A DNA stretch of 64,000 nt from Verrucomicrobiales bacterium. GTDB lineage: Bacteria > Verrucomicrobiota > Verrucomicrobiia > Verrucomicrobiales > DEV007. The translations under genes were made by a program, and so were the position numbers. The stretch is taken from NCBI GenBank assembly GCA_016795505.1, contig JAEUHH010000005.1:91979-155978 (forward strand), in the 5' to 3' direction. The notes under the pieces are model-generated. The model did no database searches and was not told where the DNA came from. It was given only the letters and a program-made list of their open reading frames with translations. Shown here in pieces: positions 4,891 to 33,752 of this stretch. The first letter of the stretch is position 1, and every line of letters begins with the position of its first letter.

Positions 4891-4899
4891 CCGGCCGGC

Positions 4900-5652: not shown

Positions 5653-5665
5653 CGGCGCGGCGCGG

Positions 5666-6553
5666 TCAATGCCGCCGGGGTGCACAACACGCCGGGCAAC
5701 ACCAGCCCACCAGGAAAGCCAGAAAGGCCCCCAGCACGGCGCCACCGAGCCAGACGACAGGTCGCGGCGGGCCGACCGGCTCGGCCGGGACGCTGGCGGG
5801 CTCGGCGAGGCGCAGGGTCACGGCCGGACCGGGAAAGTCCGCCGGAGCGGGGGTAACCGGACCGGTGAGTTCGGCGAGCAGTCGCTGGACGGCCTCCGCG
5901 GGATCGGCGATCTCGGCGGCTGCGAGCCCGAAATCGCGGCGCCATGTAGCGACCTGATCGAGGATGCGGCTGCGCAGCCCGTCGAGCCGCTCGCGGGCGC
6001 CCACGACGGCGGGATGCGCGGCTTCGTTGCCGTAGCGGGCGGCGAGTTTTTCGAATTCGGCACGCTGGCTGGTCCAGGCGGCGGATAGGCTCTGGGGCGA
6101 GTCGGCGGCGGCAGCATCCGGCAGGGCGGCGGCGGGCCGGGGCCGGGTCGGTCCGGGCGAAACAGAGGCGAGAAAAACCTCCGCCAGTCGATCGGCCTCT
6201 GCGGCGGCTTGGGCGGGCTCAGAATGGCTGACGATCACCGCCATGAGCTGGCTGCCTCGCCGCACCCGGACGCGGGTGCGCTGGGCGAGATCGCGCGCGG
6301 CCTCGTCGGATTCCGCGGCGGCCCGGTAGAGTGAGGGGAAGCGGAGTTTTTCCTCCAGAGTTGGCAGGGCGGCGGCCGGAGCGGCCTCCAGATAGGCGGT
6401 GGCCTCGTAGGTCGGCCCCAGCAGCAGGGTCGCCACCGCGGCGGTGATGAGACCGGCGATGGCGCCCAGCACAAGGCGGCGCAGCGTCACGACCGCGGGA
6501 CAGCACGGGCCCGCGGCGTCGCCGGCGCGGGAGGCAGGGGGAGTTTCGGACAT
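5666..6553 (-). CDS. polysaccharide chain-length-determinant (Wzz-like) membrane protein
   Basis: The topology is an N-terminal TM helix (LVLGAIAGLITAAVATLLLGPTYEA), a periplasmic helical region and a C-terminal TM helix (VVWLGGAVLGAFLAFLVGW), which is typical of Wzz/GumC short forms. It lies 14 bp upstream of the trmH-like gene. The start is trimmed to the ATG at 6553. Confidence 0.45.
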   Translation of the reverse strand: MSETPPASRAGDAAGPCCPAVVTLRRLVLGAIAGLITAAVATLLLGPTYEATAYLEAAPAAALPTLEEKLRFPSLYRAAAESDEAARDLAQRTRVRVRRGSQLMAVIVSHSEPAQAAAEADRLAEVFLASVSPGPTRPRPAAALPDAAAADSPQSLSAAWTSQRAEFEKLAARYGNEAAHPAVVGARERLDGLRSRILDQVATWRRDFGLAAAEIADPAEAVQRLLAELTGPVTPAPADFPGPAVTLRLAEPASVPAEPVGPPRPVVWLGGAVLGAFLAFLVGWCCPACCAPRRH

Positions 6554-6623
6554 GGCGATCGATGAGTGGGAGTGCCACATGTTCGGCCCGGCACGCGCCG
6601 TTGCAAGTCGCCGTGGCTTTCCT

Positions 6624-7562
6624 ATGCTGGTCGGAGTGTCTCCCACCGAGTCCAGCCCGTCCGCGACGCCGGAGGTCCGCCTGCCGGACTTCCTGGCCAT
6701 TGGGGCCATGAAATGCGGCACCACCACGCTCTACCGCGACCTGCTGGGCCAGCCAGGCCTGTATCTGCCGGACAAGGAAAGCAATGCCCTGCTCGCCGCC
6801 GATCCCGCTGCCGCGCTGGCGCGATTGACCGACGGGGCGCCGGCAGATGGCCTGACCGGCGAGGTGTGCCCCGACTACACCAAGCCCGGTCTGGACCTCC
6901 GGGCGGCGGCCGCGGCGCGGCAGCTCTACGCGGGTCGCCGGGCGCCGCGGCTGATTTTCCTCGCCCGCGAGCCGATCGCGCGGTTGCTGAGCCACCATCA
7001 TTTCATCAGCACCCAGCAGGGTGCGGGCAATCCGGGCGGCATGACGCGGGATCTCGCCGCGAGCCTGCGCGATTTTCCCGAACTGATCGAGACGAGCCGC
7101 TACGCCGCGCGACTGGCACCGTGGGTCGAGGCCTTTGGCCGCGAGTCGCTGCTGGTGCTGCGGTTTGAGGATTACATCGCGGATCGGGCCGGGACGCTGG
7201 GGCGGATCGCCGCTTTCATCGGTCACCCCGGCTTTGCCGCTGCCCGCATCGAGGCCCGGCGCGTGTACAATGCCGGAGTGGCCCGGCCGGTGGCCACGCC
7301 GGGCTGGCGACGAATTCTGGGAAATTCGCTTTATCGCCGCTGGGTGCGTCCGCTGCTGCCCATCGGTCTGAGGGACCACCTGCGCGACCGGCTGCTGCCA
7401 AAAGCGCCGCCCCGGCCCTCGCCGCCCGATCGGGAAAGGCTGCGCGAGTTGGCGGAATCCCTGAAGCCCGATGTGGCGGCCCTGTCCTGCCTGCTGGGAC
7501 AGGATGAGCCGCTGTGGGATCTGGACCGGGCGGTGGAAACCCTGGCCGCGGGAGAACCATGA
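6624..7562 (+). CDS. sulfotransferase family protein
   Basis: PDFLAIGAMKCGTTTL is a 5'-PSB (PAPS-binding) loop, and RLIFLAREPIARLLSHHH is a 3'-PB-like region. The start is ambiguous (ATG at 6552, 6579 or 6624). 6624 is chosen so that the PSB loop sits about 20 aa from the N-terminus. Confidence 0.7.
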   Translation: MLVGVSPTESSPSATPEVRLPDFLAIGAMKCGTTTLYRDLLGQPGLYLPDKESNALLAADPAAALARLTDGAPADGLTGEVCPDYTKPGLDLRAAAAARQLYAGRRAPRLIFLAREPIARLLSHHHFISTQQGAGNPGGMTRDLAASLRDFPELIETSRYAARLAPWVEAFGRESLLVLRFEDYIADRAGTLGRIAAFIGHPGFAAARIEARRVYNAGVARPVATPGWRRILGNSLYRRWVRPLLPIGLRDHLRDRLLPKAPPRPSPPDRERLRELAESLKPDVAALSCLLGQDEPLWDLDRAVETLAAGEP

Positions 7563-9016
7563 GCGGCCATCTGTCCCAGCCCAGAGGTCCGTTCGCCCGC
7601 CCGGTGGGCGTTTTTGCCGTGGCGGCGGCCGCCCTCGCCGCTTCCCTGGCCACGGCAGCGATGCTGCGCGACGAGCGTTTCGTATTTCTCGCGACCGGCC
7701 TGTGGGCGCTGGCCCTGATGCTGGTGCCCTACGCGCGCGCCGAGCGGCCGGGACTGTTCTCGGTGTGGTCCTTCGTCGTACTCACCGTGGGCATCGGGGT
7801 GACGGCCCGCGGGGTCTGCCTCACGCTCGGCTATCCCGAGGCCGGGCGGCTCGATGAGTTGTATTTCCGCGGACGGGAGGCGGCGTTTTTCTTCGAGCCG
7901 GCGCTGGCCCTGCTGACGGGATTGGGAATGCTCGTGCTGGGGCACGAATGGCGTGTCCGTCGTCCGGGCCCGGTGGACCTGGCTCCGGTATGTCCGGATC
8001 GACTGCGTCTCGTCTGTGTGGCGGTGCTGGTAGTTTCGGCGGCAGCTACCTGGCTTTACGTGTCCCGCACTGGCGGCTGGCAGGGCGGCGACTGGTCGGG
8101 CAAACGCACGCCCATCCCCGGCCTCGACGTGGCGGGCACAGGCTACCAGAGCCACGGGGGACTGCGCTTTGCCGCTTCGCTGGCGGGCTTTGGCCATGTG
8201 CTGGCTGTGGCGGGATGGTTTGCCGCCCCGGCAGGAAGGCGGATCGGTTGGGCCGTGCTGGCGGCCGCCTTGCTGCTCGTGGCGGTGGCGGTGCCTTTCC
8301 ATGCCAGCCTGCGCACGCCGCTGGTGCTGTTGCTGGTCCTGCCGGCCGCGATGGTCCATCTGGCGGGCCGGCGCATCCGCCCCGCAGCCCTCGCGGCGAC
8401 GGTGGTGGCGGCGCTGCTGGCGATCCAGGTGATGACGGTCCTGCGAAACTCGGGTAGCGACCGCGACGCCGCCATTGACCCGCCGACGCCGGCGGCGCTG
8501 TTTGATGCGGCCGTGCTGAACCGCAATCAGATCGAGCTGCCGAAAACCGCGCACCTCTATCACGCGGTGCCGCGGGAGCTGCCCGTCGCCTGGGGCGCCA
8601 CGGTGGCCCGCTGGGTGCTGGCGCCGATCCCGCGCAGCCTCTGGCCCGACAAGCCGGTGATCCAACCCGGTCCCATCGTCGGACAGACCCTGTACGATCA
8701 GCCGATCGCCGGGGTGCCGCCGTCGCTGGTGGGCGAGCTTTTTTGGAATTTCCACTGGCCGGGTGTGATCATCGGCGCCTTCCTGATCGGACTGGCTCTG
8801 CGGATGGTGGAGGCGGTCTTCCAACCGATCCGGGGCGGCGATCCGATGCGGGCGGCGCTCTTCGTGGCCGGACCCATGACGATGGGTTTCGAAATGGTCG
8901 GCGGCAGCATCGGGTCGGGCCTGTTTCGCGGATGCCTTCAGACAGCCGTCATGCTGGGCCTGCTGTGGCTGGCCCAGGATCTAAGCCGCGTTCGCCATTC
9001 CTCTGTCCCGAGATGA
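7559..9016 (+). CDS. O-antigen/oligosaccharide repeat-unit polymerase-like (Wzy-type) polytopic membrane protein
   Basis: It has about 10-12 predicted TM helices with a large periplasmic loop and no other motif, and it sits between glycosyltransferases in a polysaccharide cluster. There is an ATGA overlap with the upstream sulfotransferase (7559-7562). Confidence 0.5.
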   Translation: MSGHLSQPRGPFARPVGVFAVAAAALAASLATAAMLRDERFVFLATGLWALALMLVPYARAERPGLFSVWSFVVLTVGIGVTARGVCLTLGYPEAGRLDELYFRGREAAFFFEPALALLTGLGMLVLGHEWRVRRPGPVDLAPVCPDRLRLVCVAVLVVSAAATWLYVSRTGGWQGGDWSGKRTPIPGLDVAGTGYQSHGGLRFAASLAGFGHVLAVAGWFAAPAGRRIGWAVLAAALLLVAVAVPFHASLRTPLVLLLVLPAAMVHLAGRRIRPAALAATVVAALLAIQVMTVLRNSGSDRDAAIDPPTPAALFDAAVLNRNQIELPKTAHLYHAVPRELPVAWGATVARWVLAPIPRSLWPDKPVIQPGPIVGQTLYDQPIAGVPPSLVGELFWNFHWPGVIIGAFLIGLALRMVEAVFQPIRGGDPMRAALFVAGPMTMGFEMVGGSIGSGLFRGCLQTAVMLGLLWLAQDLSRVRHSSVPR

Positions 9017-10113
9017 CGATCCTCCACGCCGTCGAATCGCTCTCCCGTCAGGCCGGCGGTCTGCCCGTCGCGGTGGCGGGCATCGCCGGGTCCGTGGTGG
9101 CGGAGGCCCGCTGCACGGTGCTCGCGGCGGAGCGGCCCAACGAATCGGACTTTCCCCTGCCTTCCGGCGTGGAACGACTGACCAACCGGCGATCGGCGAT
9201 CGATGGCTGCACCCTGGTGCATCAGCACGGCCTGTGGGCTCCGCTCCCGGTGTGGGCTGGCCGGGCCGCCCGGCGCCGGGGTGTGCCGCTGCTGATCTCG
9301 CCCCATGGCATGCTGGAACCCTGGGCGCTGAACCATCACGCCTGGCGGAAACGGCTCGCCTGGATGGCTTATCAGAAAGGAAATCTGGAATCCGCCGCCG
9401 CACTGCATGCCACTTCGGCGGGGGAAGCCGGTCATTTCCGGGATCTGGGCCTGACGCGGCCCATCGCCGTCATTCCCCTCGGGTTGGAGCCGATTCCCGC
9501 CGCCCCGCTTGATCCGGCGGCCGTTACGGCGCCTCGGGAACGGCGGCAGCTTCTGTTCCTGTCGCGGCTGCATCCGAAAAAGGGCCTCGACCATCTGCTC
9601 CCGGCTTGGGCCGCGGTGAAGGCGCCGGACTGGGAGTTGATCATCGCGGGCATGGACGAGGGCGGCCATCGTGCGGCCATGGAGGGGCTGACCGATCGGC
9701 TGGGCATCGCGGACCGGGTGCGGTTTGTCGGACCGCTGCACGGTGCGGCGAAGGACACCGCTTTTCGACGGGCGGATGTGTTCGTGTTGCCCTCGCATTC
9801 GGAAAACTTCGGCTTCGTCGTGGGCGAGGCCCTTCAGTATGGTTTGCCGGTGATCACGACGACCGGGACGCCCTGGCAAGGGCTCCTGGAGGAGGGTTGT
9901 GGCTGGCAGGTGGCGCCCGAGTCGGAGCCGATTGCCGGAGCCCTGCGCGCGGCGGTGGCGCTTTCTGACGAGCAGCGCCGGGCGATGGGGCGGCGCGGGG
10001 CGGCGTGGATGGAGCGCGAATACGGCTGGGCCGCTCTCGGGCCGCGCTATTTGGCCGTCTATCGCTGGCTGTCGGGTGAGGGCCGGCCTCCCGGTGACCT
10101 GCTGGCGCATTGA
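9013..10113 (+). CDS. family 4 (GT-B) glycosyltransferase
   Basis: The GT4 C-terminal signature is present: SHSENFGFVVGEALQYGLPVITT (EX7E-type). ATGA overlap with the upstream gene at 9013-9016. Confidence 0.8.
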   Translation: MTILHAVESLSRQAGGLPVAVAGIAGSVVAEARCTVLAAERPNESDFPLPSGVERLTNRRSAIDGCTLVHQHGLWAPLPVWAGRAARRRGVPLLISPHGMLEPWALNHHAWRKRLAWMAYQKGNLESAAALHATSAGEAGHFRDLGLTRPIAVIPLGLEPIPAAPLDPAAVTAPRERRQLLFLSRLHPKKGLDHLLPAWAAVKAPDWELIIAGMDEGGHRAAMEGLTDRLGIADRVRFVGPLHGAAKDTAFRRADVFVLPSHSENFGFVVGEALQYGLPVITTTGTPWQGLLEEGCGWQVAPESEPIAGALRAAVALSDEQRRAMGRRGAAWMEREYGWAALGPRYLAVYRWLSGEGRPPGDLLAH

Positions 10114-23823: not shown

Positions 23824-24543
23824 ATGAGCAAATCCCCCGACCGACTCGTCATCCTCACCGGAGCCGGCATCTCCGCCGAGTCCGGACTGCCCACCTTTCG
23901 AGGGGCCGACGGTCTCTGGGAGGGCCACCGGGTGGAGGATGTCGCCAGCCCCGTGGCCTTCGCGCGGGATCCGGAGTTGGTGCATCGGTTCTACAACCTC
24001 CGCCGCGCCGCTCTCCGCACCGTGGAGCCGAATGCCGCCCATCTCGCCCTCGCCCGGCTCGAGGCCGCCTGGCGTGGTAGTTTTCTGCTCGTCACCCAGA
24101 ATGTCGACGACCTCCACGACCGCGCCGGCAGCCGCCGCCTCCTCCACATGCACGGCGAACTGATCCGGGCGCGCTGCAAGGCCTGCCGACACGGTTGGGA
24201 ATGGCGGGATGATCTGAGCCCCGACAGCATCTGCCCGTCCTGTGGCAAATCGGGGCGCGTCCGGCCCGACATCGTCTGGTTCGGCGAGGAACCGCTTCAC
24301 CTCGGCGAGATCTTCGATGCCCTGTCCCGCGCCAGCCTGTTCATCGCCATCGGCACCTCGGGCCATGTCTATCCCGCGGCCGGCTTCGTCGATGTGGCCA
24401 GGGGAGCCGGAGCCCGTGCCATCGAGATCAATCTCGCCGACACCGCCGCCTCCGCCGCCTTTGACGAACGCCGCACCGGTCCCGCCACGGACCTGGTGCC
24501 TGCGTTGGTGGAGGAATTGCTCGCCGCTCAATCCGTCGGCTGA
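23824..24543 (+). CDS. cobB: NAD-dependent protein deacylase (Sir2/CobB sirtuin)
   Basis: ILTGAGISAESGLPTFRG, TQNVDDLH and the zinc-ribbon pattern CxxC...CPSCG, plus FGE, are canonical sirtuin motifs. Confidence 0.9.
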   Translation: MSKSPDRLVILTGAGISAESGLPTFRGADGLWEGHRVEDVASPVAFARDPELVHRFYNLRRAALRTVEPNAAHLALARLEAAWRGSFLLVTQNVDDLHDRAGSRRLLHMHGELIRARCKACRHGWEWRDDLSPDSICPSCGKSGRVRPDIVWFGEEPLHLGEIFDALSRASLFIAIGTSGHVYPAAGFVDVARGAGARAIEINLADTAASAAFDERRTGPATDLVPALVEELLAAQSVG

Positions 24544-27500
24544 TCCACCCCGGATTCCACGTCCACCGGCAGCCCCTGCGGCTTGCCTTTTACCCGTTTC
24601 CTCTTTGGCGCGGTCGCCGCTTCCTCACCGGCCTCCTCCCCTTCGCGCACCGGCACCACCTTGATCTCTACATTCACCGGGACCGCGCGCAGGTCGGCGA
24701 TGATCCGCTCCAGTTTCTCCACCGTCACATCGGCCAGGGTTGCGGGCTTCTCACGATGCTGGGCCGCGCGCGTCAGCACCCCTTCGATCCGGCCCAGCCC
24801 TTCGGAAAAGCCCGCCAGCGTGCCGATCACCCGGCCCACCGGGTCATTCTCGCCGGCTTGCGCGCCCATCAGCAGGTTCCGGCTGAACTTGCGCTTGATC
24901 TCCTCCCACCGCTCTGACTCGGCTTCGGTCAGCACGCCCTCCAATTCGCGGAACTTCAGCAGATTCGCCTCCGCACCCTTGGTCAGCGTCTGTGCCTCGT
25001 TCTCGTAATGGGCAAAAATCGCCGCCTCCACCTCGGCATCCGTCATCAGGGGCACGATGCGTTCGGCGATGCGGTTCATGTTGCGATACGAACCCTGCAG
25101 ACGGAAGGCCGGCTCGGTCCGATAGGCATCCTCCATCGCCGCGGAGCGGATGTATTCCCGATTCACCCGCAGGATCGTGTCGCGCACCCGCATCAGCTTC
25201 TTCATCGCCGACACGTATTCCTCCATTTCTTCCAGGCTGTGACTGCCCTCCAGGTCGATCCCCTCGCGCGAGCCGGTCTGGGCGATGCGCATCACGGCCA
25301 TCAGGTCGGCCGGATGCCGCGCCACTAGTCGCGCCAGCACCGCGTTCGATGTGGCGGCATTCTCAATATAGCTCGCCTCAAAATCGCCCGAGTGATCGCC
25401 CGCGATGTCGCCGAGGTTGTAGGTGTCGGCCCGGTTGGCCAGCATGTCGGGTATCTGGAACTTGCCACCACTCTCGGTGTAGGGGTTGCCCGCCATCACC
25501 ACGCAGACCTTGCGACCGCGGAGGTCATAGGTGCGCGGGCGACCGTTCCACACGCCCTCGATCTTCCGCTGCGCATCGCAGAGCGAGATGAACTTCTGCA
25601 AAAATTCGGGATGCGTGTGCTGAATGTCATCGACATAGAGCATGATGTTGTCGCCCATCTCCAGCGCGAGGTTCAGCTTGTGGATCTCCTCGCGCGCCCC
25701 GGCATTCGGCGCGTCGGCGGGGTCGAGAGAGGTCACCTCGTGGCCCAGCGCCGGACCGTTGATTTTCATGAAAGCCAGGCCGAGCCGGTTCGCCACGTAT
25801 TCCATCAGCGTCGTCTTGCCATAACCGGGCGGCGAAATGAGCAGCAGCATCCCCATCCGGTCCGTGCGGGTGTCGGCCCCGGCCGTGCCCATTTGTTTCG
25901 CCAGATTGTCGCCGATCAGAGGCAGGTACACCCGATCCAGCAGCCGGTTGCGGACAAAAGCCGGCATCACCTTCGGCTTGAACTCCTCCAGCCGCATCGC
26001 CGCGCGGCGCGACTCGATCAGCGCGACCTTTCCCGCCTCATAAGCCTCGAAGCGCGGCACCGTGAGCGCGCAGAAGCCGCGCAGACGGCGGGTGAACTCG
26101 TGATAGTCGAAAGCCAGCCGTCCGCCGTCGATCCGCGGGTGATCCCCGGCCAAACCGGAAAGCTCGGCCGTGAGCGCGACGTCATTCACCGCCAGTTGGC
26201 CCGTCTCCCCACGAATCAGGTGCGCCGCGGCCTCCAGCAGGCAGGCGCGGTTTCCGATCAAAGAGGGTCTGATCTCCGATGCAACAGGGTCTGATTGGAA
26301 TTCGCCACCCAGGGCCCCGCCGATCCAGTCGCAGGCCACCTGGAAGCGGGCCACGGGGTCGGCGGCCAGCTCGGTCATCGCGGCGGCAAAGGTCTTGTCG
26401 AGCCGGCGCTCCGTGAGCGCATTCCGGAACTGTTCCATCAGCTCCGCTGCGCGTGGGGAAATCGTGAACGGCGTCGGGTCGATCGACTCGAAGAACAAAT
26501 ACTCGGCGGCGAGCGTGGCATCAACCTCCCCAAAGCCCGGGCACTCGCGCCGGAAAGCCTCCAGGCCGCGCGAGAGTTCCGCCACGTAGCTGCTTTGGAC
26601 TCCGGCCGCCTCGGGAAAGCCGCGGCGCATCTGCCCAAAGGCGGACAACTGGCGCGTCAGGCGAACCTTTTCCGGCGACGCCGGATCCCACGTGGCGTGC
26701 CACAGCAAAGCCAGCGCACGCTCGTCGGGTCCGTAGCGGAGCAGGCCGGCCTCGCGGTGGATGCGGCCCAGTACGCTGAGAATCGCCACCGCATCGCGGT
26801 CGTGAACGCCCTTGGTGTAGCCCTCGCGATACCGCGGCGCCATGAACTCGCGCACGGCTTCGAGTTTTCCTTCGTCATTCGCAGCGAGCCACGCGTCGAG
26901 CGTTTCGAGGTCGAGCAACAGTCGCCAGGCCAGATATTCCGCCCGATAGACGGTGCGATCCTCGGACACGACCTCCTGGCTCCACACCTCGCGGGTGGCG
27001 AGGAAGGCCTCGTCCGCGATCGGCTCGAAGAAATTGGTGCCGGCGAGATGCAGGCACAGCGTGTCGTCCTTCGGCACGATGGACAGCTCCAACTCCTGCC
27101 GGTTCACGGAGAAGCGGTGATTGCCGAGCTGGATCACGTCGCGTCCATCGACAAACAGTTCCTGCCGGTCCTTGAGTTGCCGCACGGCATCCTCCCGCAG
27201 CGTCTTGAGCCGGGTCTGGATCTCGTCGGCTTTCACCGGATCGCCCATCGCGGTGAGTTGGGCGATGGTGTCGCGCACCTTCTCGACCATCAGATCGCCG
27301 GCGAGGTAGCCGGCGATCCCGGCGGCGGAGTCAAAGCCGTCGAGTCGGTGTTTGATCGTCGTCAGGAGACGGTCGGCCGACTTCGCGAGCGAGGCCGTGC
27401 GGCGGTTGCGGGCCTCCACCAATTGGAGCTTGCGGGCTTCGAAGGCATTGTAAACCTCGTCGCGTTTCTCGACGAGCTGGGCCACGTACTCGTCGAACTC

Positions 27501-29687
27501 GGCGAAGCGACCCTCCAACTCTTCGAGCTGGACCATCGTCTTCGACAGGTATTCGTCGCACTTCGCGGGCGTGTCGCAGAGATCGAGGTAGTTGACGACC
27601 GCCTGATTGAGCAGCTTCAGTTGTGCGCCAAACTGCGCCACTCCCTCGGCCCGGGCGAGGTCTTTGCGCCGGTTTTTCAGGGCGGAACGCACCCGGTTCA
27701 GGATGGCGTAGATGCCGGAGATGTCCTCGATGATCTGGGTGCTCTGGGTGGCATCCGCGATCTTCAGGCCGCCGACGATGTCGATCAGCATTTCCAGTTC
27801 CGCCCCGCCGCGGCTGAGTTCCTCGTCGATGGCGTCGGCTTCGGCGACCTTGGCGACGGCAGGGATGCGCGCCTCCTGGTCGGTGATCTGGCTTCGGTAG
27901 GGATCGAGCGCCTCGGGCCGGAGGAGAAACTCCACGCAGCGCTGCGAGACGGCGCCGGTGGCGTCGATGACATCGTTTTCCATCGCCTCGATCGCCGCGG
28001 CGTCAGCGTAGCGGAGTTCGCGCAGGGCGATCACCTCGCCGCGCACCTCCCGGAGCCCGGCGAGGCTGTGAACAAAGCCAAGGATGTCGTCCGGCCGCGT
28101 GTTGCGGCCCGCGGTGGCCAGCTTGCGGGCCTTGTCGCCGACCCGCTTCATGTCTGACGCGGTGGACTGACGCAGGCGACGCACTTTGTCAAACTCGGCA
28201 ATGGCCGCCTGGGCGGCGCCACGGATCTCGCTGAGCGCGGCCCTCAGATCGAAGGTCTCCGCGTGGCCGATCCAGAAATAGGCGTCGCAGATGTCGCCGG
28301 CGCGCTTCGCGAGATCGACGTAGAGATCGGCGTAGGTGTCGTCTTTGCCCAGCAGGTTGAGCACCTCGTGGCACTCGGCCATGCAGCGGACGATGGCGGC
28401 GTTGCCGATCTTGTTGAGATGACTGTCGCTCCGGCCGGGGGCGCGGAATTCACCCTCCATGTAGGGCGTGCGCCAGATCTGGAGGGCGTGGTGCTTTTGC
28501 GGCTCGGCTTCGGCGCGGAAATGGATCAGCCCGCCGTCGGGGAACACGGTGTAGCCGTGGCAGACGATCGGTGTGTCCACGGACTGCTCGATGATGTGAT
28601 AGGGCATCAGGGCATTGACGCCGGTGACGCGGTTGTGGAAGGCGTATAGATAGTCCTCACCGTTCGGCGACGCGATGCGGCGCTCGAAGATCATGCCGGT
28701 GAGGCCGTTGTCGAAGCGCTTGGTTTCGCCGGTCTGGAGATGGTAGCCGTCGGCGAAGATGATGCCCTGGTCGCCCGGCAGCAGCACGCAGGAATCGGCG
28801 ATGGAATCGATGCGGGTGACGGAGCGAACCTTTTCGTTGAAGACAAGGTAACGAAATGCCTTTTCCTGATAGGGCTGGATCTTCAGCAGGATGAGGTTCC
28901 CGACGATGGCGTAGAAGATGGTGGCATCGTCCAGCTTCTGGTCGCGGTGCTCGACCGGCTCGGCGTGAATGCCCTCGCCGGTGGCGGTGTTGTCCTCGAC
29001 CTTGATCGTCAGGTCGCCGCCGACCGTCTCCACAAAGACGCGGTCCTCGATCGATATGTGCGGGTGCACCCCGTCGCGGTGCATCGACCGGTTCACGCGG
29101 GTCCACTCGAACTCGACCGGGGGAGGGAAGACGTATTCGTGGTCGAAACGATTGCCGAGATAGTCGATACCGGCATCAGTGTCGCGCCATTTGAAGCACT
29201 TGATGTCATCGACGGTCTTCCCAGCCCGGAAAGCCATGTAGAGATGCGGGCCGATGCGGCGGAACTTGAGGAACGACGCCTCGCGGTAGTACTTGTAGAG
29301 GTAGGCGAAATCCTCCGCGAAGCTGCCCTGGAGGAGAAAGTCCAGGCTGGTCTCTGAGAACGTGTGGTTTTCCGGATGATACTGGTAGGCGGCAAAGACG
29401 TCGGCCGGCGCCGTGGTAGTCTTCAGGCCGAACTGGACATTGAAGCCGAAGAGGAATCGATTTCCCCCGATGGCCACCAGGTCGCGTGGCGTGCAGGCGT
29501 GGGCGGTGGAGACCCGCTCGGTGGCGAGCAGAGTCGGCTCGACGGCGCCGAAAACGGCCTGCCGTTCGGCATTGAGCCTGGCGAGCCGGGCACGAAGGTC
29601 GGATCCGTGCGTGGCGAGCCGCGACCGGATGATCTCGTAGGCACCCGCTTCGAGTTGGGCGGCCGGTGCTGTGGGGTCAGTGGGCAT
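24528..29687 (-). CDS. very large (1719 aa) AAA+ ATPase-domain protein of unknown function (DUF3686-like architecture?)
   Basis: It is a single uninterrupted ORF. An AAA+ core lies near residues 1250-1400 (Walker A LLLISPPGYGKTTLM; Walker B IMLYVDDIQH; sensor VCVVMAGNPYTE). It has a long N-terminal region and an acidic C-terminal tail with a KRKRVKGK patch. It overlaps the cobB stop convergently by 16 bp. It contains an in-frame copy of the dispersed palindromic repeat (see findings). Confidence 0.75.
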   Translation of the reverse strand: MPTDPTAPAAQLEAGAYEIIRSRLATHGSDLRARLARLNAERQAVFGAVEPTLLATERVSTAHACTPRDLVAIGGNRFLFGFNVQFGLKTTTAPADVFAAYQYHPENHTFSETSLDFLLQGSFAEDFAYLYKYYREASFLKFRRIGPHLYMAFRAGKTVDDIKCFKWRDTDAGIDYLGNRFDHEYVFPPPVEFEWTRVNRSMHRDGVHPHISIEDRVFVETVGGDLTIKVEDNTATGEGIHAEPVEHRDQKLDDATIFYAIVGNLILLKIQPYQEKAFRYLVFNEKVRSVTRIDSIADSCVLLPGDQGIIFADGYHLQTGETKRFDNGLTGMIFERRIASPNGEDYLYAFHNRVTGVNALMPYHIIEQSVDTPIVCHGYTVFPDGGLIHFRAEAEPQKHHALQIWRTPYMEGEFRAPGRSDSHLNKIGNAAIVRCMAECHEVLNLLGKDDTYADLYVDLAKRAGDICDAYFWIGHAETFDLRAALSEIRGAAQAAIAEFDKVRRLRQSTASDMKRVGDKARKLATAGRNTRPDDILGFVHSLAGLREVRGEVIALRELRYADAAAIEAMENDVIDATGAVSQRCVEFLLRPEALDPYRSQITDQEARIPAVAKVAEADAIDEELSRGGAELEMLIDIVGGLKIADATQSTQIIEDISGIYAILNRVRSALKNRRKDLARAEGVAQFGAQLKLLNQAVVNYLDLCDTPAKCDEYLSKTMVQLEELEGRFAEFDEYVAQLVEKRDEVYNAFEARKLQLVEARNRRTASLAKSADRLLTTIKHRLDGFDSAAGIAGYLAGDLMVEKVRDTIAQLTAMGDPVKADEIQTRLKTLREDAVRQLKDRQELFVDGRDVIQLGNHRFSVNRQELELSIVPKDDTLCLHLAGTNFFEPIADEAFLATREVWSQEVVSEDRTVYRAEYLAWRLLLDLETLDAWLAANDEGKLEAVREFMAPRYREGYTKGVHDRDAVAILSVLGRIHREAGLLRYGPDERALALLWHATWDPASPEKVRLTRQLSAFGQMRRGFPEAAGVQSSYVAELSRGLEAFRRECPGFGEVDATLAAEYLFFESIDPTPFTISPRAAELMEQFRNALTERRLDKTFAAAMTELAADPVARFQVACDWIGGALGGEFQSDPVASEIRPSLIGNRACLLEAAAHLIRGETGQLAVNDVALTAELSGLAGDHPRIDGGRLAFDYHEFTRRLRGFCALTVPRFEAYEAGKVALIESRRAAMRLEEFKPKVMPAFVRNRLLDRVYLPLIGDNLAKQMGTAGADTRTDRMGMLLLISPPGYGKTTLMEYVANRLGLAFMKINGPALGHEVTSLDPADAPNAGAREEIHKLNLALEMGDNIMLYVDDIQHTHPEFLQKFISLCDAQRKIEGVWNGRPRTYDLRGRKVCVVMAGNPYTESGGKFQIPDMLANRADTYNLGDIAGDHSGDFEASYIENAATSNAVLARLVARHPADLMAVMRIAQTGSREGIDLEGSHSLEEMEEYVSAMKKLMRVRDTILRVNREYIRSAAMEDAYRTEPAFRLQGSYRNMNRIAERIVPLMTDAEVEAAIFAHYENEAQTLTKGAEANLLKFRELEGVLTEAESERWEEIKRKFSRNLLMGAQAGENDPVGRVIGTLAGFSEGLGRIEGVLTRAAQHREKPATLADVTVEKLERIIADLRAVPVNVEIKVVPVREGEEAGEEAATAPKRKRVKGKPQGLPVDVESGVDQPTD
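26252..26301 (-). repeat. dispersed GATC-rich palindromic element, copy 2 (intragenic, in-frame within the AAA+ ATPase ORF)
   Basis: The sequence is tttccgatcaaagagggtctgatctccgatgcaacagggtctgattgg. Its reverse complement has the same modular layout as copy 1. It is translated as ...SEIRPSLIGNRACL... inside the 1719-aa ORF without breaking the frame. Confidence 0.7.
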
Positions 29688-30588
29688 CTGATGAGAGGAG
29701 TGGCAGCGGCGGAGCCTCCCTATTCAGGGTGGGCGGGACGCCTGCGGTGCCAGTGAGTTTTCGGACCGGTATCTCAATCGGGCGAGGCGTAACACACTGG
29801 GACCGCAGGCGTCCCGCCTGCTCCATTTCGTCGGGTGTATTTCGGTGGGGATGCCCAATTTCGAAGCGATCGCGATCATTCTGGGCGGGCGGGACGCCCG
29901 CGGTCCCGGTGGGGTGTCGGACCGATGTCAATTCGGGTGGCTCCTGGAAAGTACCGTCCGGCATCACCACTTTCGATAATTCACGACGGCCTTTGCTGGC
30001 ACTGCTACACAGCCAGTCCTCGGGAGTTTCACACAAGCCAGCGGAAACAGGATTCCGATGAATGTATGCCACTACTGATTCGAAATGGGCAAAGTCGCGA
30101 ACGAAGCGATCCCTATAATCAGGCCACCAAAATGGCGGCTCAAAAGCCACCCATTTGGCCGCCTCGTGCGCGGTGTACGACTTCCAGCAGTGAACCAACT
30201 GTGTCAGCGTGAAGCCAGGGATTGTCTCGAAAACACAATGCACGTGGTTCGGCATAATCACCCAGGCCAACATACGGTAGCGGACACCATCAAAATGAAG
30301 CAGGGCATTTTCGACCATCTCGGCAACATCGGGATTTCGCAGGTGGCAGGCGCCAATGCCTTTGTCGAGCAGGGATTCCAGGCGTTTCGACTGGCGGGCT
30401 CGAATTGGTTCGTTCTCCAATTGTTCACGAAGGTTGGCCGGAATGGAGTCTCCCAATCGGAATGTAAGGCTTTGAACCAGATCAGCCCGGTCAAAGTGAG
30501 GCAGGTATCCACGTGAATACCAGCCTCGATGCGGTCCCTGACCCAAAGAGTCACCAACACCATTATTCTGTCGGTACTCTGGTCTCAT
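29677..30588 (-). CDS. REP-associated tyrosine transposase (RAYT; IS200/IS605-like Y1 HuH transposase)
   Basis: It begins with the RAYT N-terminal motif RGYLPHFD, then has the HuH motif MPNHVHCVF and the catalytic-Tyr block VAYIHRNPVSAGL. The catalytic domain ends near ...WLCSSASKGRRE. The remaining roughly 85 codons of the ORF are read-through of REP repeats (PTGTAGVPPAQN... twice). The ORF overlaps the start of the AAA+ gene by 11 bp. Confidence 0.75.
   Translation of the reverse strand: MRPEYRQNNGVGDSLGQGPHRGWYSRGYLPHFDRADLVQSLTFRLGDSIPANLREQLENEPIRARQSKRLESLLDKGIGACHLRNPDVAEMVENALLHFDGVRYRMLAWVIMPNHVHCVFETIPGFTLTQLVHCWKSYTAHEAAKWVAFEPPFWWPDYRDRFVRDFAHFESVVAYIHRNPVSAGLCETPEDWLCSSASKGRRELSKVVMPDGTFQEPPELTSVRHPTGTAGVPPAQNDRDRFEIGHPHRNTPDEMEQAGRLRSQCVTPRPIEIPVRKLTGTAGVPPTLNREAPPLPLLSSDAH
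29731..29912. repeat. REP cluster (family GGGACCGCAGGCGTCCCGCCTGC and its inverse) on the 3' side of the RAYT gene
   Basis: The cluster has three units: gggcgggacgcctgcggtgcc at 29731, gggaccgcaggcgtcccgcctgc at 29799-29821, and gcgggcgggacgcccgcggtcccggtgg at 29884-29911. They are arranged as inverted pairs (REPIN-like). Confidence 0.7.
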
Positions 30589-30622
30589 GAGGTGAATGCG
30601 TTCAATGAACTAGAAACATACT

Positions 30623-30890
30623 GGGACCGCAGGCGTCCCGCCTGCCCCGACATGCCGGGGTAGCAGAATCGCGTGCCGTCTCCGATACCGCCCTTGCCAT
30701 CCGTAGCGGGCGAGACGCCCGCGGTCCCGGTGGGTTTTCCGAACGTTGAGTGGGTTCGCAGAGGCGCAACAAACCGGGACCGCAGGCGTTCCGCCTGCCC
30801 CAACATGCCGGGGTAGCAGAATCGCGTGGCGACTCTGACACAGTCCTTGCCATCCGTAGCGGGCGAGACGCCCGCGGTCCCGGTGGGTCT
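30623..30890. repeat. tandem pair of REP doublets (about 153-bp period) immediately upstream of the RAYT gene
   Basis: Unit 1 runs about 30623-30733 (gggaccgcaggcgtcccgcctgc ... gcgggcgagacgcccgcggtcccggtgg). Unit 2 runs about 30776-30888 with the same sequence and a few substitutions. Each unit is a long imperfect palindrome. Confidence 0.75.
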
Positions 30891-30970: not shown

Positions 30971-33031
30971 TCACGCCCCCAGCCGTTTCAGCACGCTGCC
31001 GGCGGGTTCGTCGCCCAGGCCGAAGCGCTTGGCGGCGCCGAGCAGGCTGCCCAGCTTGGCGCGGGTCGCCTCGTCGTCGCCGGTCTGGCCCATCAGGCGG
31101 GCGAGGAGGGCGGCGATGCTCAGGTTCTTGAGATCCTCGCTGGTGACGCCGAAGAGGTCGATCCATTCCTTCAACTGGGCCTTGAACTGCTCGGGGTCGC
31201 CGGTAAACAAGGTGTCGCGCACCGAACTCAGGGTGCGGCTGTTGTCCACCAGCCGGTCGAGTGCTTTGCCGGCGCCGATGGCGCGCGTGATCTGGTCGAA
31301 AAAGGCTGATTCGCCGCCCACGATGTCGATCTTGGCGCTGCGCAGGGCCTCGGCGAGGATCTCGGAGTGCTTCGCGGCGATGGCGCGGCGCACGTCGATC
31401 TCGGCGAGTTCGACGGCTTTCTCCTTTTCGAGTTCGAGCTTGAACTCCTCGTGATCCTTGCCGGCTTCGTTGAATTTCTTCATCGCCTCGGCCTTGGCAT
31501 CGATGCCGCCGGCTTCCGCTTCGGCTCTGGCGGCAATGCCAGCGGCCTCGGCCTGGGCCTTGGCGGCGATGACATCGGCTTCCGCCTTCCCGGGAGCGGC
31601 TGACTCGGCCATGATGCCCTCGGCGAGGACTTTCTTGGCCACGGACAGTTTCTCGGCGGCGGCCTGCTCGGCCTCGGCCTTGATCAGGATCTCCTTGGCG
31701 TGCAGTTCGGCAGCCTGCTTCTCGGCCTCTGCATGGCGGACGCGCTCGTAGAGGTCCTGATCGGCATGCAGCAGGGCGGCCTCCTTGGCGGCTTCGGCTT
31801 CCTTGATTTTCTTGATCAACTCGGACTGGGCGGCCTTTTCGGCCTGGGTCACGGCCACCTTTTTCTCGCGCTCGGCACCAGCGAAGGCCTCGGTGTCGAG
31901 GATCTTCTGCTGTTCCTCGACTACGGTCTTCTCCACCGCGACGCGCTCTTTGATCACGTCCTGGATCGCCTTCCTTTCGACCTCGACCGCCTTTTCCTTC
32001 TCGATTTCCTTCAATGTCGTGACGCGCTCGCGCTCGATCGCCTCCAGTTCGCGGTCGCGCACCACGCGCTCCTGCTCGACACCGTCGGTGCGCTCCTTGC
32101 CGCGCTGGGCCACCAGGACCTCGCGCTCCTTGTTTTGCAGGGCGACTTCGACTTCCTCCTCGGTGGCGATGCGGGCACGCTCGGCTTTCAGCTTTTCCTC
32201 GGCCTGCACCTTGGCAGCCTCGGCCTCCTCGCGGGCGCGCACAGCGGCGATCTCGCGGGCTTGTTTGGCTTCGGCCTCCGCCTGCTGGCGCTCCAGTTCG
32301 AGGATCGCCTCGCGGGTCTCGACATCCTGTTGCTTGATCACCTTTTCCTTGTCACGCTGGATCTGGTTCGCCAGCTTGGCCTGCGTGGCGGTGAGTTCGG
32401 TGATCTTCTTGATGCCCTCGGCATCGAGGATGTTGTCCGGGTCCATCGCCTCGATCTTCGTTTGCTCAAGGAAGTCGATGGCAGCGTCCTCCAGCGAAAA
32501 GCCGTTCAAGTCCGTGCCGATCAGCTTCAGGATCTCGTCGCGGAACGTGTCACGCTCCTCGTACAATTCGGTGAATTGGAATCGCTTGCCCACGGTCTTC
32601 AGCGCCTCGGAAAACTTCGCGTCAAAGAGCTGCTCGATCGCCTCCAGGCTGGAGGCGCGTTCGCAGCCGATCGAGTTGGCCACTCGGACGACATCCTCGT
32701 CGGTCGGATTCACCCGCACAAAGAAGGCCACCTTGATGTCGGCGCGGATGTTGTCCTTGCAGATCAGACCGTTGGCACCGGATCGGTCGATCTCGAGCCG
32801 TTTCACCGAGAGATCCATCTCTTCCACCCGGTGAAAAGCGGGAAAGACCCAGATGCCGTCCAGTCCGACGCGGGTTTTGCCCATACCGGTGCGGACGAGG
32901 GCGGAACCTTTGCGGACTTTCTTGAACAGCGAGGCGTACAGCATCGCGGTCAGAATAAGCACGCCGATGATCGCGCCGATCACGAGGGCGGCGACGAGGG
33001 CGAGGGGATTGAGGTCGAGTGCGAGTATCAT
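30971..33031 (-). CDS. flotillin-family protein (SPFH/band-7 domain plus long Glu/Ala/Lys-rich coiled-coil; YqiK-like)
   Basis: It has an N-terminal TM helix and an SPFH domain (VRTGMGKTRVGLDGIWVFPAFHRVEEMDLSVKRLEI), followed by EA-rich flotillin repeats and a C-terminal flotillin domain. Confidence 0.85.
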   Translation of the reverse strand: MILALDLNPLALVAALVIGAIIGVLILTAMLYASLFKKVRKGSALVRTGMGKTRVGLDGIWVFPAFHRVEEMDLSVKRLEIDRSGANGLICKDNIRADIKVAFFVRVNPTDEDVVRVANSIGCERASSLEAIEQLFDAKFSEALKTVGKRFQFTELYEERDTFRDEILKLIGTDLNGFSLEDAAIDFLEQTKIEAMDPDNILDAEGIKKITELTATQAKLANQIQRDKEKVIKQQDVETREAILELERQQAEAEAKQAREIAAVRAREEAEAAKVQAEEKLKAERARIATEEEVEVALQNKEREVLVAQRGKERTDGVEQERVVRDRELEAIERERVTTLKEIEKEKAVEVERKAIQDVIKERVAVEKTVVEEQQKILDTEAFAGAEREKKVAVTQAEKAAQSELIKKIKEAEAAKEAALLHADQDLYERVRHAEAEKQAAELHAKEILIKAEAEQAAAEKLSVAKKVLAEGIMAESAAPGKAEADVIAAKAQAEAAGIAARAEAEAGGIDAKAEAMKKFNEAGKDHEEFKLELEKEKAVELAEIDVRRAIAAKHSEILAEALRSAKIDIVGGESAFFDQITRAIGAGKALDRLVDNSRTLSSVRDTLFTGDPEQFKAQLKEWIDLFGVTSEDLKNLSIAALLARLMGQTGDDEATRAKLGSLLGAAKRFGLGDEPAGSVLKRLGA

Positions 33032-33062
33032 ACAGTTGGCAGGTTAGGTTGAAAGGATGGCT

Positions 33063-33752
33063 TTAGGAGGCGGACTCCCCGGCCAGGGCCAGGGGACGAA
33101 CCAGAAAGGTGCCGGGCCGGCTTTCGTCCTCCAGCACGACGAGGACTTCGGTGCCGCGGCTCAGCGGCTCCCGCCCCGGGGCGACGCGGGCTTGGAGCAG
33201 GATGGGCGCTCCATCCCGGAGCACCTCGATCTGCCCGCCGGCGTCGGTGACCGTGAGGGAGCGTACCGTGCCGGACAGGCCCACCAGGGGCACCCGGTTT
33301 TCGGTGTCGCGGATGAGCTTCATCAGCGGTCTCAGCGGGCGGACGAGCAAGCGCGTCATGATGAAGGCCACGGCGATCGATCCGCCGAAGATGCCGGTGG
33401 CCAGCGTCCCGGAGTCACCGGCATTCAGGTAGATATTCCCCAGCAGATTTGCGGCCCAGAGCAGCAGAGTGAAGAGCGTGATCACGAACATCACCGGTGC
33501 ATCGGTGGCGCCGAGCACCTTCATCAGGGAGCCGAAAAAGCCGGGGCTGTGGTCGTCTCCCTGATCGTGACCGTGGCCGTCGCCCTCTCCGACCGCGTCG
33601 GCGTGATGGCTGTCCGTCCCGATCGCGCCATCGAGGGCGTCAAAATCCATCAGGCCGATCAGCGAGAGCAGCCAGTAGATCCCGATCAAGCCCAACAGGA
33701 TCGTCAAAGGCAGGCTGTGCGCGCTGATGGCTTCCTGTAGGACAATTTCCAT
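33063..33752 (-). CDS. NfeD/YqiJ-like membrane protein (OB-fold; partner of flotillin)
   Basis: It has N-terminal TM helices and a His/Asp-rich loop (HHADAVGEGDGHGHDQGDDH), and a C-terminal NfeD-like beta-barrel (GTVRSLTVTDAGGQIEVLRDGAPILLQARV). It lies 31 bp upstream of the flotillin gene, the canonical yqiJK order. Confidence 0.6.
   Translation of the reverse strand: MEIVLQEAISAHSLPLTILLGLIGIYWLLSLIGLMDFDALDGAIGTDSHHADAVGEGDGHGHDQGDDHSPGFFGSLMKVLGATDAPVMFVITLFTLLLWAANLLGNIYLNAGDSGTLATGIFGGSIAVAFIMTRLLVRPLRPLMKLIRDTENRVPLVGLSGTVRSLTVTDAGGQIEVLRDGAPILLQARVAPGREPLSRGTEVLVVLEDESRPGTFLVRPLALAGESAS

Follow-up and report, generated by a model that had tools for sequence, protein, structure and literature searches.

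A stretch of 64,000 nt from a Verrucomicrobiales bacterium (contig JAEUHH010000005.1 of assembly GCA_016795505.1, positions 91,979 to 155,978 of the forward strand), which we refer to as the window, contains a gene for a REP-associated tyrosine transposase (RAYT) that is flanked by hairpins of a repetitive extragenic palindromic (REP) family and lies between a flotillin-like gene and an AAA+ ATPase gene. We conclude that this locus is most likely a REPtron, i.e., a single-copy, vertically inherited RAYT of the domesticated type together with its cognate REP hairpins, and we assign this reading a probability of roughly 0.85. It rests on the family and fold of the protein, its intact catalytic motifs and the purifying selection that acts on it, the anatomy and covariation of the REP hairpins, their dispersal in other genomes, the conserved synteny of the locus, and the existence of empty sites in relatives. 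To our knowledge, systems that combine a RAYT with inverted REP doublets (REPINs) have been studied almost only in Gammaproteobacteria.

The window encodes a class 2 RAYT with intact catalytic motifs

The gene and its two catalytic motifs are as follows.

29677-30588, reverse strand: RAYT open reading frame (ORF) for a TnpA-REP-like Y1 HUH transposase of 303 aa; the folded core, residues ~20-220, corresponds to about 29929-30531
30238-30249, reverse strand: HuH motif N114-H115-V116-H117 (within NHVHCVF), read from the sequence, with columns that are invariant or nearly so in a 92-sequence alignment
30049-30066, reverse strand: catalytic Tyr motif Y175-IHRNP (within YIHRNPVSAGL), residues 175-180, with the class 2 Y-x3-NP signature, identified from the sequence, the 92-sequence alignment and the motif table of PMC6006769

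An initial annotation, made from the letters of the window alone, had recognized the hallmarks of a Y1/HuH transposase in this ORF, and all of them are present: RGYLPHFD at residues 26-33, NHVHCVF, and YIHRNPVSAGL, in which the Tyr175 codon occupies 30064-30066. The protein also contains the SS tail motif at residues 195-196 and keeps all 23 columns that are invariant in the 92-sequence family alignment, including H115, H117, N179, and P180. In the scheme of Quentin et al. (2018; PMC6006769), the combination of NHVH, Y-x3-NP, and SS defines class 2 (TnpA-REP) as opposed to class 1 (IS200). In profile searches, Pfam Y1_Tnp (PF01797) scored 27.8 bits and thus exceeded its gathering cutoff of 23 bits, with an E-value of 3e-6 and a match over residues 103-178 only. 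NF047646 (REP_Tyr_transpos) was the best NCBIfam family, with an E-value of 7e-20, and the NCBIfam profile transpos_IS200 scored 21 bits against a cutoff of 55. The Y1_Tnp and REP_Tyr_transpos matches are significant, and the initial annotation had named the lack of a significant match as grounds for refuting its RAYT reading. The sole sequence match in the PDB was 4ER8, the TnpA-REP of Escherichia coli. An AlphaFold2 (AF2) model built with 92 homologues showed a predicted local distance difference test score (pLDDT) above 90 over residues ~20-220, and Foldseek placed chain 4er8_A first (E=1e-7, TM-score normalized to the target 0.67), followed by the TnpA proteins of the IS200/IS605 group (IS608, ISDra2, and IS200). 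Among 2,586 homologues of the window RAYT, many are named RayT by their sources, and the identical GenBank protein, MBL9150986.1, is named 'transposase'. A tblastn search of the 64-kb window with the RAYT gave a single match, with no recent duplicate there. These findings support the conclusion that the protein is a class 2 Y1 HUH transposase of the RAYT type.

Inverted REP hairpins bracket the RAYT gene

We searched the whole window for REP copies with the 23-mer GGGACCGCAGGCGTCCCGCCTGC, allowing up to 3 mismatches. Seven copies were found, all within 29729-30881, compared with 0 in 100 shuffles.

30859-30881, reverse strand: type B REP (GCGGGCG-TCT-CGCCCGC), which reads forward on the RAYT sense strand and is the outer arm of the distal upstream doublet
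30776-30798, forward strand: type A REP with 1 mismatch; as the inner arm, it lies across a 60-nt spacer from the outer arm of the distal upstream doublet
30706-30728, reverse strand: type B REP, outer arm of the proximal upstream doublet
30623-30645, forward strand: type A REP (GCAGGCG-TCC-CGCCTGC) that lies 34 nt from the RAYT ATG and forms the inner arm of the proximal upstream doublet
29885-29907, reverse strand: REP in the tail of the RAYT ORF that yields the peptide GTAGVPPA and forms the first arm of the downstream doublet
29799-29821, forward strand: REP in the ORF tail that yields the peptide QAGRLRS; it follows a 63-nt spacer and completes the downstream doublet as its second arm
29729-29751, reverse strand: degenerate REP with 3 mismatches, also within the ORF tail (peptide GTAGVPPT) and followed after 41 nt by the AAA+ ATG
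30615-30888, no strand assigned: tandem duplication of the upstream REP doublet

The layout agrees with what had been described for this DNA, namely two upstream doublets in tandem with a period of 153 bp (a 121-nt unit, 92% identity between the two) and three downstream units, at 29729, 29799, and 29885, that overlap the 3' end of the ORF. Read on the RAYT sense strand, with F for forward and I for inverted, the order is F-I F-I [RAYT] F-I F, and the doublet spacers measure 60, 60, and 63 nt. The gene is therefore bracketed on both sides by inverted REP hairpins, which is the layout of a REPtron. All copies form a hairpin that consists of a perfect 7-bp stem (GCRGGCG/CGCCYGC), a TCY loop of 3 nt, and an unpaired 5' foot, CTGGGACC, and a switch between an A-T and a G-C pair in the stem separates types A and B, which are the two types combined in each doublet. 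The doublets themselves fold into long hairpins with z-scores of -2.2 to -9. Rfam offered only microRNA-like and small-RNA matches far below threshold for the long hairpin at 29721-29829, and we rejected assignment of that hairpin to a known RNA family.

A separate feature of both type B upstream copies is a GTAG on the opposite strand (30700-30712 and 30853-30865), which abuts a 6-bp version of the stem (GTAG-CGGGCG-AGA-CGCCCG). This opposite-strand GTAG makes the copies at 30706 and 30859 mimic a canonical GTAG REP and is a local peculiarity.

The REP family is dispersed and partnered with this RAYT clade

The initial annotation had named an occurrence of the 23-mer at this site only as the mark of a local duplication rather than a REP family. 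We found the REP in at least 118 stretches of 8 kb each in a scan of one genome per species with the query GGGACCGCRGGCGTCYCGCCYGC, and in at least 120 metagenome stretches in a scan with the exact type A 23-mer. Carriers in the genome scan include Acidobacteriota, Planctomycetota, Alphaproteobacteria, Chloroflexota, Verrucomicrobiota, and Bacteroidota, and some metagenome-assembled genomes (MAGs) carry the REP on several contigs. Among the matches listed, only 2 of the 118 from genomes and 4 of the 120 from metagenomes had a RAYT homologue nearby. Neighbouring copies in the genome scan formed 83 convergent pairs, compared with 7, 9, and 8 pairs in the other orientations, and the mode of the convergent-pair spacer, 50-75 nt, is the geometry of the doublets in the window. 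Similarity in the metagenome matches was confined to the REP of 26-33 nt, with no close relative of the window's REPIN spacers among the matches listed.

The copies from other genomes also reveal constraint on the hairpin and its foot. Across 240 of them, stem pair 9-21 covaries (G-C in 210, A-T in 21, and other combinations in about 9). The two bases before GGGACC, which lie outside the search pattern, are C in 88% and T in 87% of the same copies, giving a foot consensus of (y)aCT-GGGACC. We considered membership of the GTAG-tagged REP superfamily (Di Nocera 2013) and rejected it, as only 1 of 225 copies has a compatible flank. A full-text literature search for the REP sequence gave no match, nor did searches of the supplement of PMC3733652.

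The association with the transposase is visible at the genes themselves. REPs flank RAYT homologues that are 45-68% identical to the window RAYT, and 48 of 120 homologues have REP-derived peptides at their annotated N- or C-termini, which indicates that REPs hug the RAYT gene tightly. Taken together, the dispersal of the REP across other genomes and its presence beside RAYT homologues indicate a genuine REP family that has this RAYT clade as its partner.

Two further arrangements were seen in other loci. Same-orientation tandem arrays of the REP, with periods of about 35-119 nt and up to four or more copies, are present in L131 (83-249 and 937-1064; locus handles are ours) and in the metagenome loci L176, L193, L170, L165, and L246, which shows that arrays form as well as inverted doublets. 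In L003 (9632-9990) and also in L004, a tandem duplication of ~287 nt lies upstream of a RAYT homologue and comprises the 3' end of a histidine-kinase gene, a REP doublet, and a truncated RAYT 5' end. The annotated RAYT start in L003, a GTG, is upstream of a REP arm, so that the N-terminus of this protein is also translated REP (RGRDARGPRG).

The RAYT is an old, vertically inherited insertion in an operon

The genes on either side of the RAYT are the following.

30971-33031, reverse strand: upstream operon gene, flotillin-like protein of 686 aa; its orthologue in L002 is 83-84% identical and has Pfam Band_7
24528-29687, reverse strand: downstream operon gene, DUF3686/DUF7902/AAA+ 'DNA repair ATPase' of 1719 aa

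In the window, the stretch from the flotillin gene to the AAA+ gene measures 1,283 nt and holds the RAYT and the REPs. Four other lineages (L001, L002, L128-130, and L131) have a RAYT with 63-69% identity at the same site, with REPs on both sides, and a distant RAYT homologue is bracketed by REPs in the same manner. The order flotillin-RAYT-AAA+ (DUF3686) is seen in L002, which is an NCBI MAG, in L128-130, and in L131; L001, a 1-kb contig, covers REP-RAYT-REP and the beginning of the AAA+ gene but does not extend to the upstream gene. The flanking REPs occur as singlets in L128 (one per side, inverted), as doublets in L001, L002, and the window, and as tandem arrays in L131. In contrast, the more distant relatives L125, L126, and L127, whose AAA+ proteins are 58-64% identical, have no RAYT, and the flotillin gene is followed directly by the AAA+ gene, with a spacer of 53-106 nt in L125 and L127. 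The adjacency of the two genes in these relatives indicates that the 1,283 nt in the window were inserted long ago and have been passed on vertically ever since. Vertical inheritance, unlike the behaviour of insertion sequences, has been described for RAYTs (PMC5581495).

Sequence divergence among the filled sites is consistent with this history. The pairwise identity matrices of RAYT and AAA+ are congruent across lineages. The RAYT is under purifying selection, with nonsynonymous divergence (pN) of 0.19-0.28, saturated synonymous divergence (pS), and a dN/dS of about 0.09 for the closest pair, L128 and L131. Although synonymous sites are saturated, the REP cores are at least 20/23 identical between lineages.

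We also evaluated how the RAYT gene is connected with its neighbours. The AAA+ ATG at 29685-87 has no possible start further upstream and is established as the real start by the conservation of the N-terminus LEAGAYEII and by the Pfam DUF3686 match, which begins at residue 30. A sigma70 promoter scan of the locus gave no promoter-like site, and a terminator scan gave weak matches only, none of which was placed behind the REPs on the coding strand, where no T-run terminators follow the copies. Because neither a promoter-like site nor a convincing terminator separates the unit from its neighbours, the RAYT is likely co-transcribed with the flotillin/AAA+ operon.

The base composition of the gene is a distinct observation. 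The G+C content at third codon positions (GC3) is 0.56 in the RAYT core (29944-30588), compared with 0.84-0.85 in the flanking flotillin (30971-33031) and AAA+ (24528-29687) genes. The deficit recurs in every syntenic RAYT orthologue (0.58-0.66 versus 0.77-0.86 for the neighbours) and in the distant homologue of L003 (0.70 versus 0.88), such that the codon usage of the RAYT shows no amelioration, although the gene has long resided there by vertical descent and under purifying selection. Whether low-expression selection or avoidance of REP-like structure causes the deficit is a matter we raise only as a question.

Other REP-like structures were noticed in and beside the AAA+ gene. L002 has an extra REP doublet (7886-7989), 3.4 kb from its RAYT locus, that lies in frame inside the AAA+ ORF (4473-9710) and is translated at residues ~1138-1173 (...GARASGP...RAGRPHS...). 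The orthologous site in the window (26166-26345) lacks REP arms; its spacer is similar in part, and 22 nt are duplicated in tandem (26253-26295). This linker of the AAA+ protein is hypervariable and represents either a landing site for REPs or a relic. In L127, the 53-nt flotillin/AAA+ spacer (5948-6000) is itself a GTAG-type REP doublet (GTAGC-ACGGGCA-TCC-TGCCCGT plus GTAG-CCCAGGC-TTCCA-GCCTGGG), and in L125 the spacer (~5895-6000) contains a hairpin, GGGAGCGCGGC...GCTGCGCTCCC, which resembles a doublet that has collapsed and has an L002-type foot. The same intergenic spot draws different REP families in different lineages.

The RAYT frame reads through its downstream REPs

The RAYT ORF continues past the conserved protein and across the downstream REPs.

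29677-29943, reverse strand: C-terminal read-through tail of the RAYT, about 88 codons (~85-105), consisting of translated REPs and spacers

The initial annotation had described the last roughly 85 codons as translated REPs in which one peptide appears twice. REPs do lie in the tail, and three REP cores are translated; however, these cores account for only about 3 x 8 codons, the rest being REP spacer, and the peptide PTGTAGVPPAQN appears once, with the second copy reading LTGTAGVPPTLN. Homology to 120 relatives stops about 25-45 aa past the Tyr motif, and tail residues 224-283 are predicted to be disordered (pLDDT <50). The 11-bp overlap with the AAA+ start that had been reported is correct: the RAYT stop codon, TGA, occupies 29677-79 and the AAA+ ATG occupies 29685-87, with the overlap reading ATGCCCACTGA. 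An 11-nt overlap is also found in L001 (ATGCATCCTGA), whereas the two codons are separated by a gap of 5 nt in L002 and 8 nt in L128. An assembly error does not account for the tail, since the ORFs of L001, L002, and L128 likewise extend across the REPs that lie downstream. Both in-frame REPs inside RAYT genes and REPs that overlap the ends of RAYT genes have been documented previously (PMC6006769, PMC3733652).

One explanation for this arrangement is that read-through is functional, i.e., that the frame is kept open across the REPs so that ribosomes reach the AAA+ start, which would provide translational coupling and would shield the structured REP stretch, otherwise left untranslated, from Rho-dependent polarity. 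If true, this would explain how the operon tolerates an inserted REPtron. In most of the syntenic lineages (the window, L001, L002, and L128), the RAYT frame ends close to the AAA+ start, which is consistent with such a role, as is a distant homologue whose ORF, flanked by the genes for a histidine kinase and the cognate sigma54 response regulator, ends in TAATG. Furthermore, the RAYT frame has no internal stop in any of the four loci analysed, whereas the other two frames have 1-4 stops. However, base composition alone would leave the frame open with a probability of 0.06-0.33 per locus, the loci were selected for long products, and stops naturally cluster in the AT-richer initiation region. 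The L131 ORF ends after the first REP and leaves 108 untranslated nt, including one REP, before the AAA+ ATG, and the sequence of the disordered tail is dictated by the REP DNA. Because of the ascertainment by product length and the counter-example of L131, we make no statistical claim for selected read-through, and the 11-nt overlap may be a by-product of base composition. These considerations, together with the precedent for in-frame REPs, make selected coupling a minority possibility that we regard as doubtful.

We are equally hesitant about a broader proposal that joins two parts: that the RAYT frame is kept open as a translated bridge within the operon, providing coupling without polarity, and that the nearly invariant REP with the CTGGGACC foot reflects an unusually conserved or mobile partnership. 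In the second part, RAYTs with no more than about 45-50% identity would serve this one REP family in Acidobacteriota, Planctomycetota, Verrucomicrobiota, Alphaproteobacteria, Chloroflexota, and Bacteroidota. We consider these linked readings unlikely.

The tail could also mean that the gene is decaying, in which case the natural stop would have been lost, the 303-aa product would be non-functional, and the hairpins would be relics. The 128 aa that follow the Tyr motif in the window RAYT make it the longest of 120 homologues, for which the median is 32.5 aa, and the NCBIfam score falls under its cutoff, both of which would fit with decay. In contrast, every invariant residue is kept, the AF2 core is confidently folded, and the orthologues are under strong purifying selection. 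Similar read-through tails in four independent orthologue lineages further indicate that the window does not contain a private lesion, and in-frame REP insertions in RAYT genes are documented as tolerated (PMC6006769). Decay is therefore very improbable.

An autonomous insertion sequence of the IS200/IS605 type, recently arrived and with the hairpins as its left and right ends, is a still poorer description of the locus. The HUH/Y1 fold is common to the TnpA proteins of IS608 and ISDra2, the minimal orthologue in L128 has one inverted REP per side in the manner of element ends, and the GC3 of the RAYT relative to its neighbours (0.56 versus 0.84) looks foreign. However, the protein has the class 2 motifs Y-x3-NP and NHVH rather than Y-x3-Q and DH[VI]H, no tnpB-like ORF is adjacent, and the 64 kb contain neither tnpB nor a second copy of the gene. 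Recent arrival is also at odds with the presence of the gene at one site in five lineages, among which its synonymous divergence is saturated and its identity matrix is congruent with that of AAA+. In addition, the flanking hairpins are inverted rather than co-oriented, and in many genomes the hairpin is dispersed without the gene. Finally, a local duplication of a terminator-like hairpin unrelated to the transposase, to which the confinement of seven copies to 1.2 kb and the recent 153-nt tandem duplication of the upstream doublets might point, is effectively refuted by the presence of the 23-mer with the same doublet geometry in at least 238 other genome and metagenome stretches, the REPs beside RAYT homologues with 45-68% identity, the conservation of the core (at least 20/23) where synonymous sites are saturated, and the lack of T-run terminators after the copies on the coding strand.

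Proposed mechanism and standing of the REPtron reading

For a REPtron, we propose the following mechanism. The RAYT protein would act as an HUH/Y1 endonuclease and strand-transferase for single-stranded DNA (ssDNA). By analogy with the TnpA-REP enzymes of E. coli, Stenotrophomonas maltophilia, and Marinomonas, it would bind the folded REP hairpin and the unpaired 5' foot on ssDNA, cleave at a nearby dinucleotide through Tyr175, and then rejoin the strands. In the characterized enzymes, the foot serves as a guide, and cleavage takes place at a CT on the 5' or the 3' side of the hairpin (PMC8266576). For the REP in the window, the candidate cleavage dinucleotide is probably the conserved CT directly 5' of GGGACC, within the foot (C)TGGGACC. 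Both catalytic activity on these REPs and the position of cleavage are predictions from those enzymes. Such cleavage and rejoining would make and maintain the inverted REP doublets, and the source genome may contain a REPIN population. In this reading, an ancestor of the Verrucomicrobial lineage acquired the unit in the flotillin/AAA+ spacer, where it has remained, in the same orientation as the operon.

Several findings weigh against the REPtron reading. First, the score for REP_Tyr_transpos missed the equivalog cutoff (71.4 versus 80 bits), and the N-terminal half of the protein is outside both hidden Markov model matches, those to REP_Tyr_transpos and Y1_Tnp. The missed NF047646 cutoff excludes membership of the NCBI equivalog, not membership of the broader RAYT family. 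Second, as the initial annotation had noted, the window has no other copy of the REP family: neither the 23-mer nor the 20-mer core at 3 mismatches gave a copy in the 62.7 kb outside the RAYT flanks. Third, the GT[AG]G foot is absent, with a C[TC]AC/GT[AG]G-compatible flank in just 1 of 225 copies, and this tag is essential for the characterized E. coli enzyme. Finally, strand-specific binding, cleavage, and rejoining of REP ssDNA are known only for the enzymes of E. coli, S. maltophilia, and Marinomonas (PMC8266576), none of which is in the clade of the window RAYT. The initial annotation's reading as a REPIN/RAYT arrangement is supported, in that the RAYT is bracketed by inverted REP doublets, but its term 'canonical' is too strong because the REP lacks a GT[AG]G foot.

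The locus is a clear but ordinary case of a known system in a little-studied phylum, and it leaves the picture of RAYTs unchanged. The embedding in an operon, the synteny over deep divergence, and the read-through of the gene into its own REPs are added features that are tidy and unsurprising. Its value is as a clean, datable example from Verrucomicrobiota, in which one ancestral insertion in a conserved flotillin/AAA+ operon can be compared between filled and empty sites, and in which five diverged filled lineages keep the REP core nearly invariant while the surroundings are saturated. It thereby offers a natural experiment on how long a RAYT and its REPs persist together, on the turnover of flanking REPs as singlets, doublets, and tandem arrays, and on whether REPtrons embedded in operons are tolerated via read-through translation.

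Other features of the neighbourhood

In our scan, neither the 686-aa flotillin-like protein nor the 229-aa protein encoded upstream of it (33063-33752) had a Pfam match at E<=1e-3. The 227-aa counterpart of the latter in L002 has no precomputed Pfam match, unlike the L002 flotillin (Band_7), and in L127, which has no RAYT, an upstream gene gave a weak match to YqiJ_N. The flotillin gene in the window contains a 33-nt tandem repeat (31484-31587) within a coiled-coil region rich in Ala and Glu. Antisense 'shadow' ORFs of 620 aa (26295-28157, forward strand) and 450 aa (31700-33052, forward strand) lie opposite the AAA+ and flotillin genes, respectively; such ORFs are typical for GC-rich DNA and provide no evidence for genes.

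Comparison with known systems

The closest characterized structure is that of E. coli TnpA-REP (YafM; RAYT Group 2, TnpAY1 subclass 2.2; 4ER8), which shares the HUH/Y1 fold and Y-x3-NP with the window RAYT, at about 16% identity over the structural alignment. The E. coli REPtron is likewise a single-copy gene bracketed by inverted REPs or bacterial interspersed mosaic elements (BIMEs), and by analogy the window RAYT would be expected to recognize an ssDNA hairpin plus foot and to cleave at CT. Unlike the E. coli protein, the window RAYT has an N-terminal extension (WxSRGYLPHFD) and a helical insert of roughly 50 aa before the HuH strand. The REPs differ as well, in that those in the window have a perfect stem of 7 bp and a loop of 3 nt and lack both a bulge and GTAG. 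Furthermore, the window RAYT, unlike that of E. coli, is embedded co-directionally in an operon, and its ORF crosses the downstream REPs.

Other systems resemble the locus in part. The REPIN-RAYT system of Pseudomonas fluorescens SBW25 (Group 3, subclass 2.5) also has inverted REP doublets with a spacer that form long hairpins, and its RAYT is single-copy, vertically inherited, and flanked by doublets. However, the SBW25 REPs are GTAG-tagged and form hundreds of REPINs in the genome, whereas none is outside the locus in our 64 kb, and the two RAYT proteins are unrelated at the subclass level. RAYTs of subclass 2.4 (Group 4) similarly translate REP DNA within an unbroken ORF, but there the insertions have GT[AG]G feet and lie between the HuH and Tyr motifs, whereas REP DNA in the window forms a C-terminal extension (and, in homologues, also an N-terminal one). 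The TnpA proteins of IS200/IS605 elements (IS608 and ISDra2) have the HUH/Y1 fold, sub-terminal ssDNA hairpins, and a guide 5' of the hairpin; unlike the window RAYT, they belong to class 1 (Y-x3-Q), are multicopy and mobile as a unit, often have tnpB, and use co-oriented end hairpins. We also considered TIRYT/subclass 2.1, in view of Acidobacterial TIRYTs and the GGGGWSAS motif, and rejected it: the window protein has no helix-turn-helix C-terminal domain, and the repeats are hairpins with dispersed copies.

The strongest resemblance is to subclass 2.6, which corresponds to Group 5 in the RAYT classification of Bertels. The REPs of this subclass typically have a CTGG or CTAG foot without GTAG, a perfect stem of 8-10 bp, a loop of 3-4 nt, and extra genomic copies (PMC6006769), and the 'atypical' REP of Aequorivita (AFL81591.1) reads GCTGG-CGCGGGCG-TCC-CGCCCGTG (PMC6006769, Table S1). 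The window REP shares with the subclass 2.6 REP the CTGG foot, the TCC/TCT loop, and an identical core of 16 nt, GCGGGCGTCCCGCCCG, but differs in its longer foot (CTGGGACC) and in a stem of 7 bp rather than 8. The protein motifs NH[LIV]H, YIHxNP, and SS are common to both, whereas the window RAYT has FWW in place of WQ and R in place of Q/N in the Tyr motif (YIHRNP versus YIH[QN]NP). The window host belongs to Verrucomicrobiales, and subclass 2.6 includes members from Planctomycetes, with REP copies elsewhere in the host genomes. Because the CTGG foot, the TCC loop, the 16-nt core, and the protein motifs all point in this direction, subclass 2.6 is the most likely home, and we conclude that the window RAYT, as placed by motifs and REP rather than by the authors' profiles, is probably a member of TnpAY1 subclass 2.6/RAYT Group 5.

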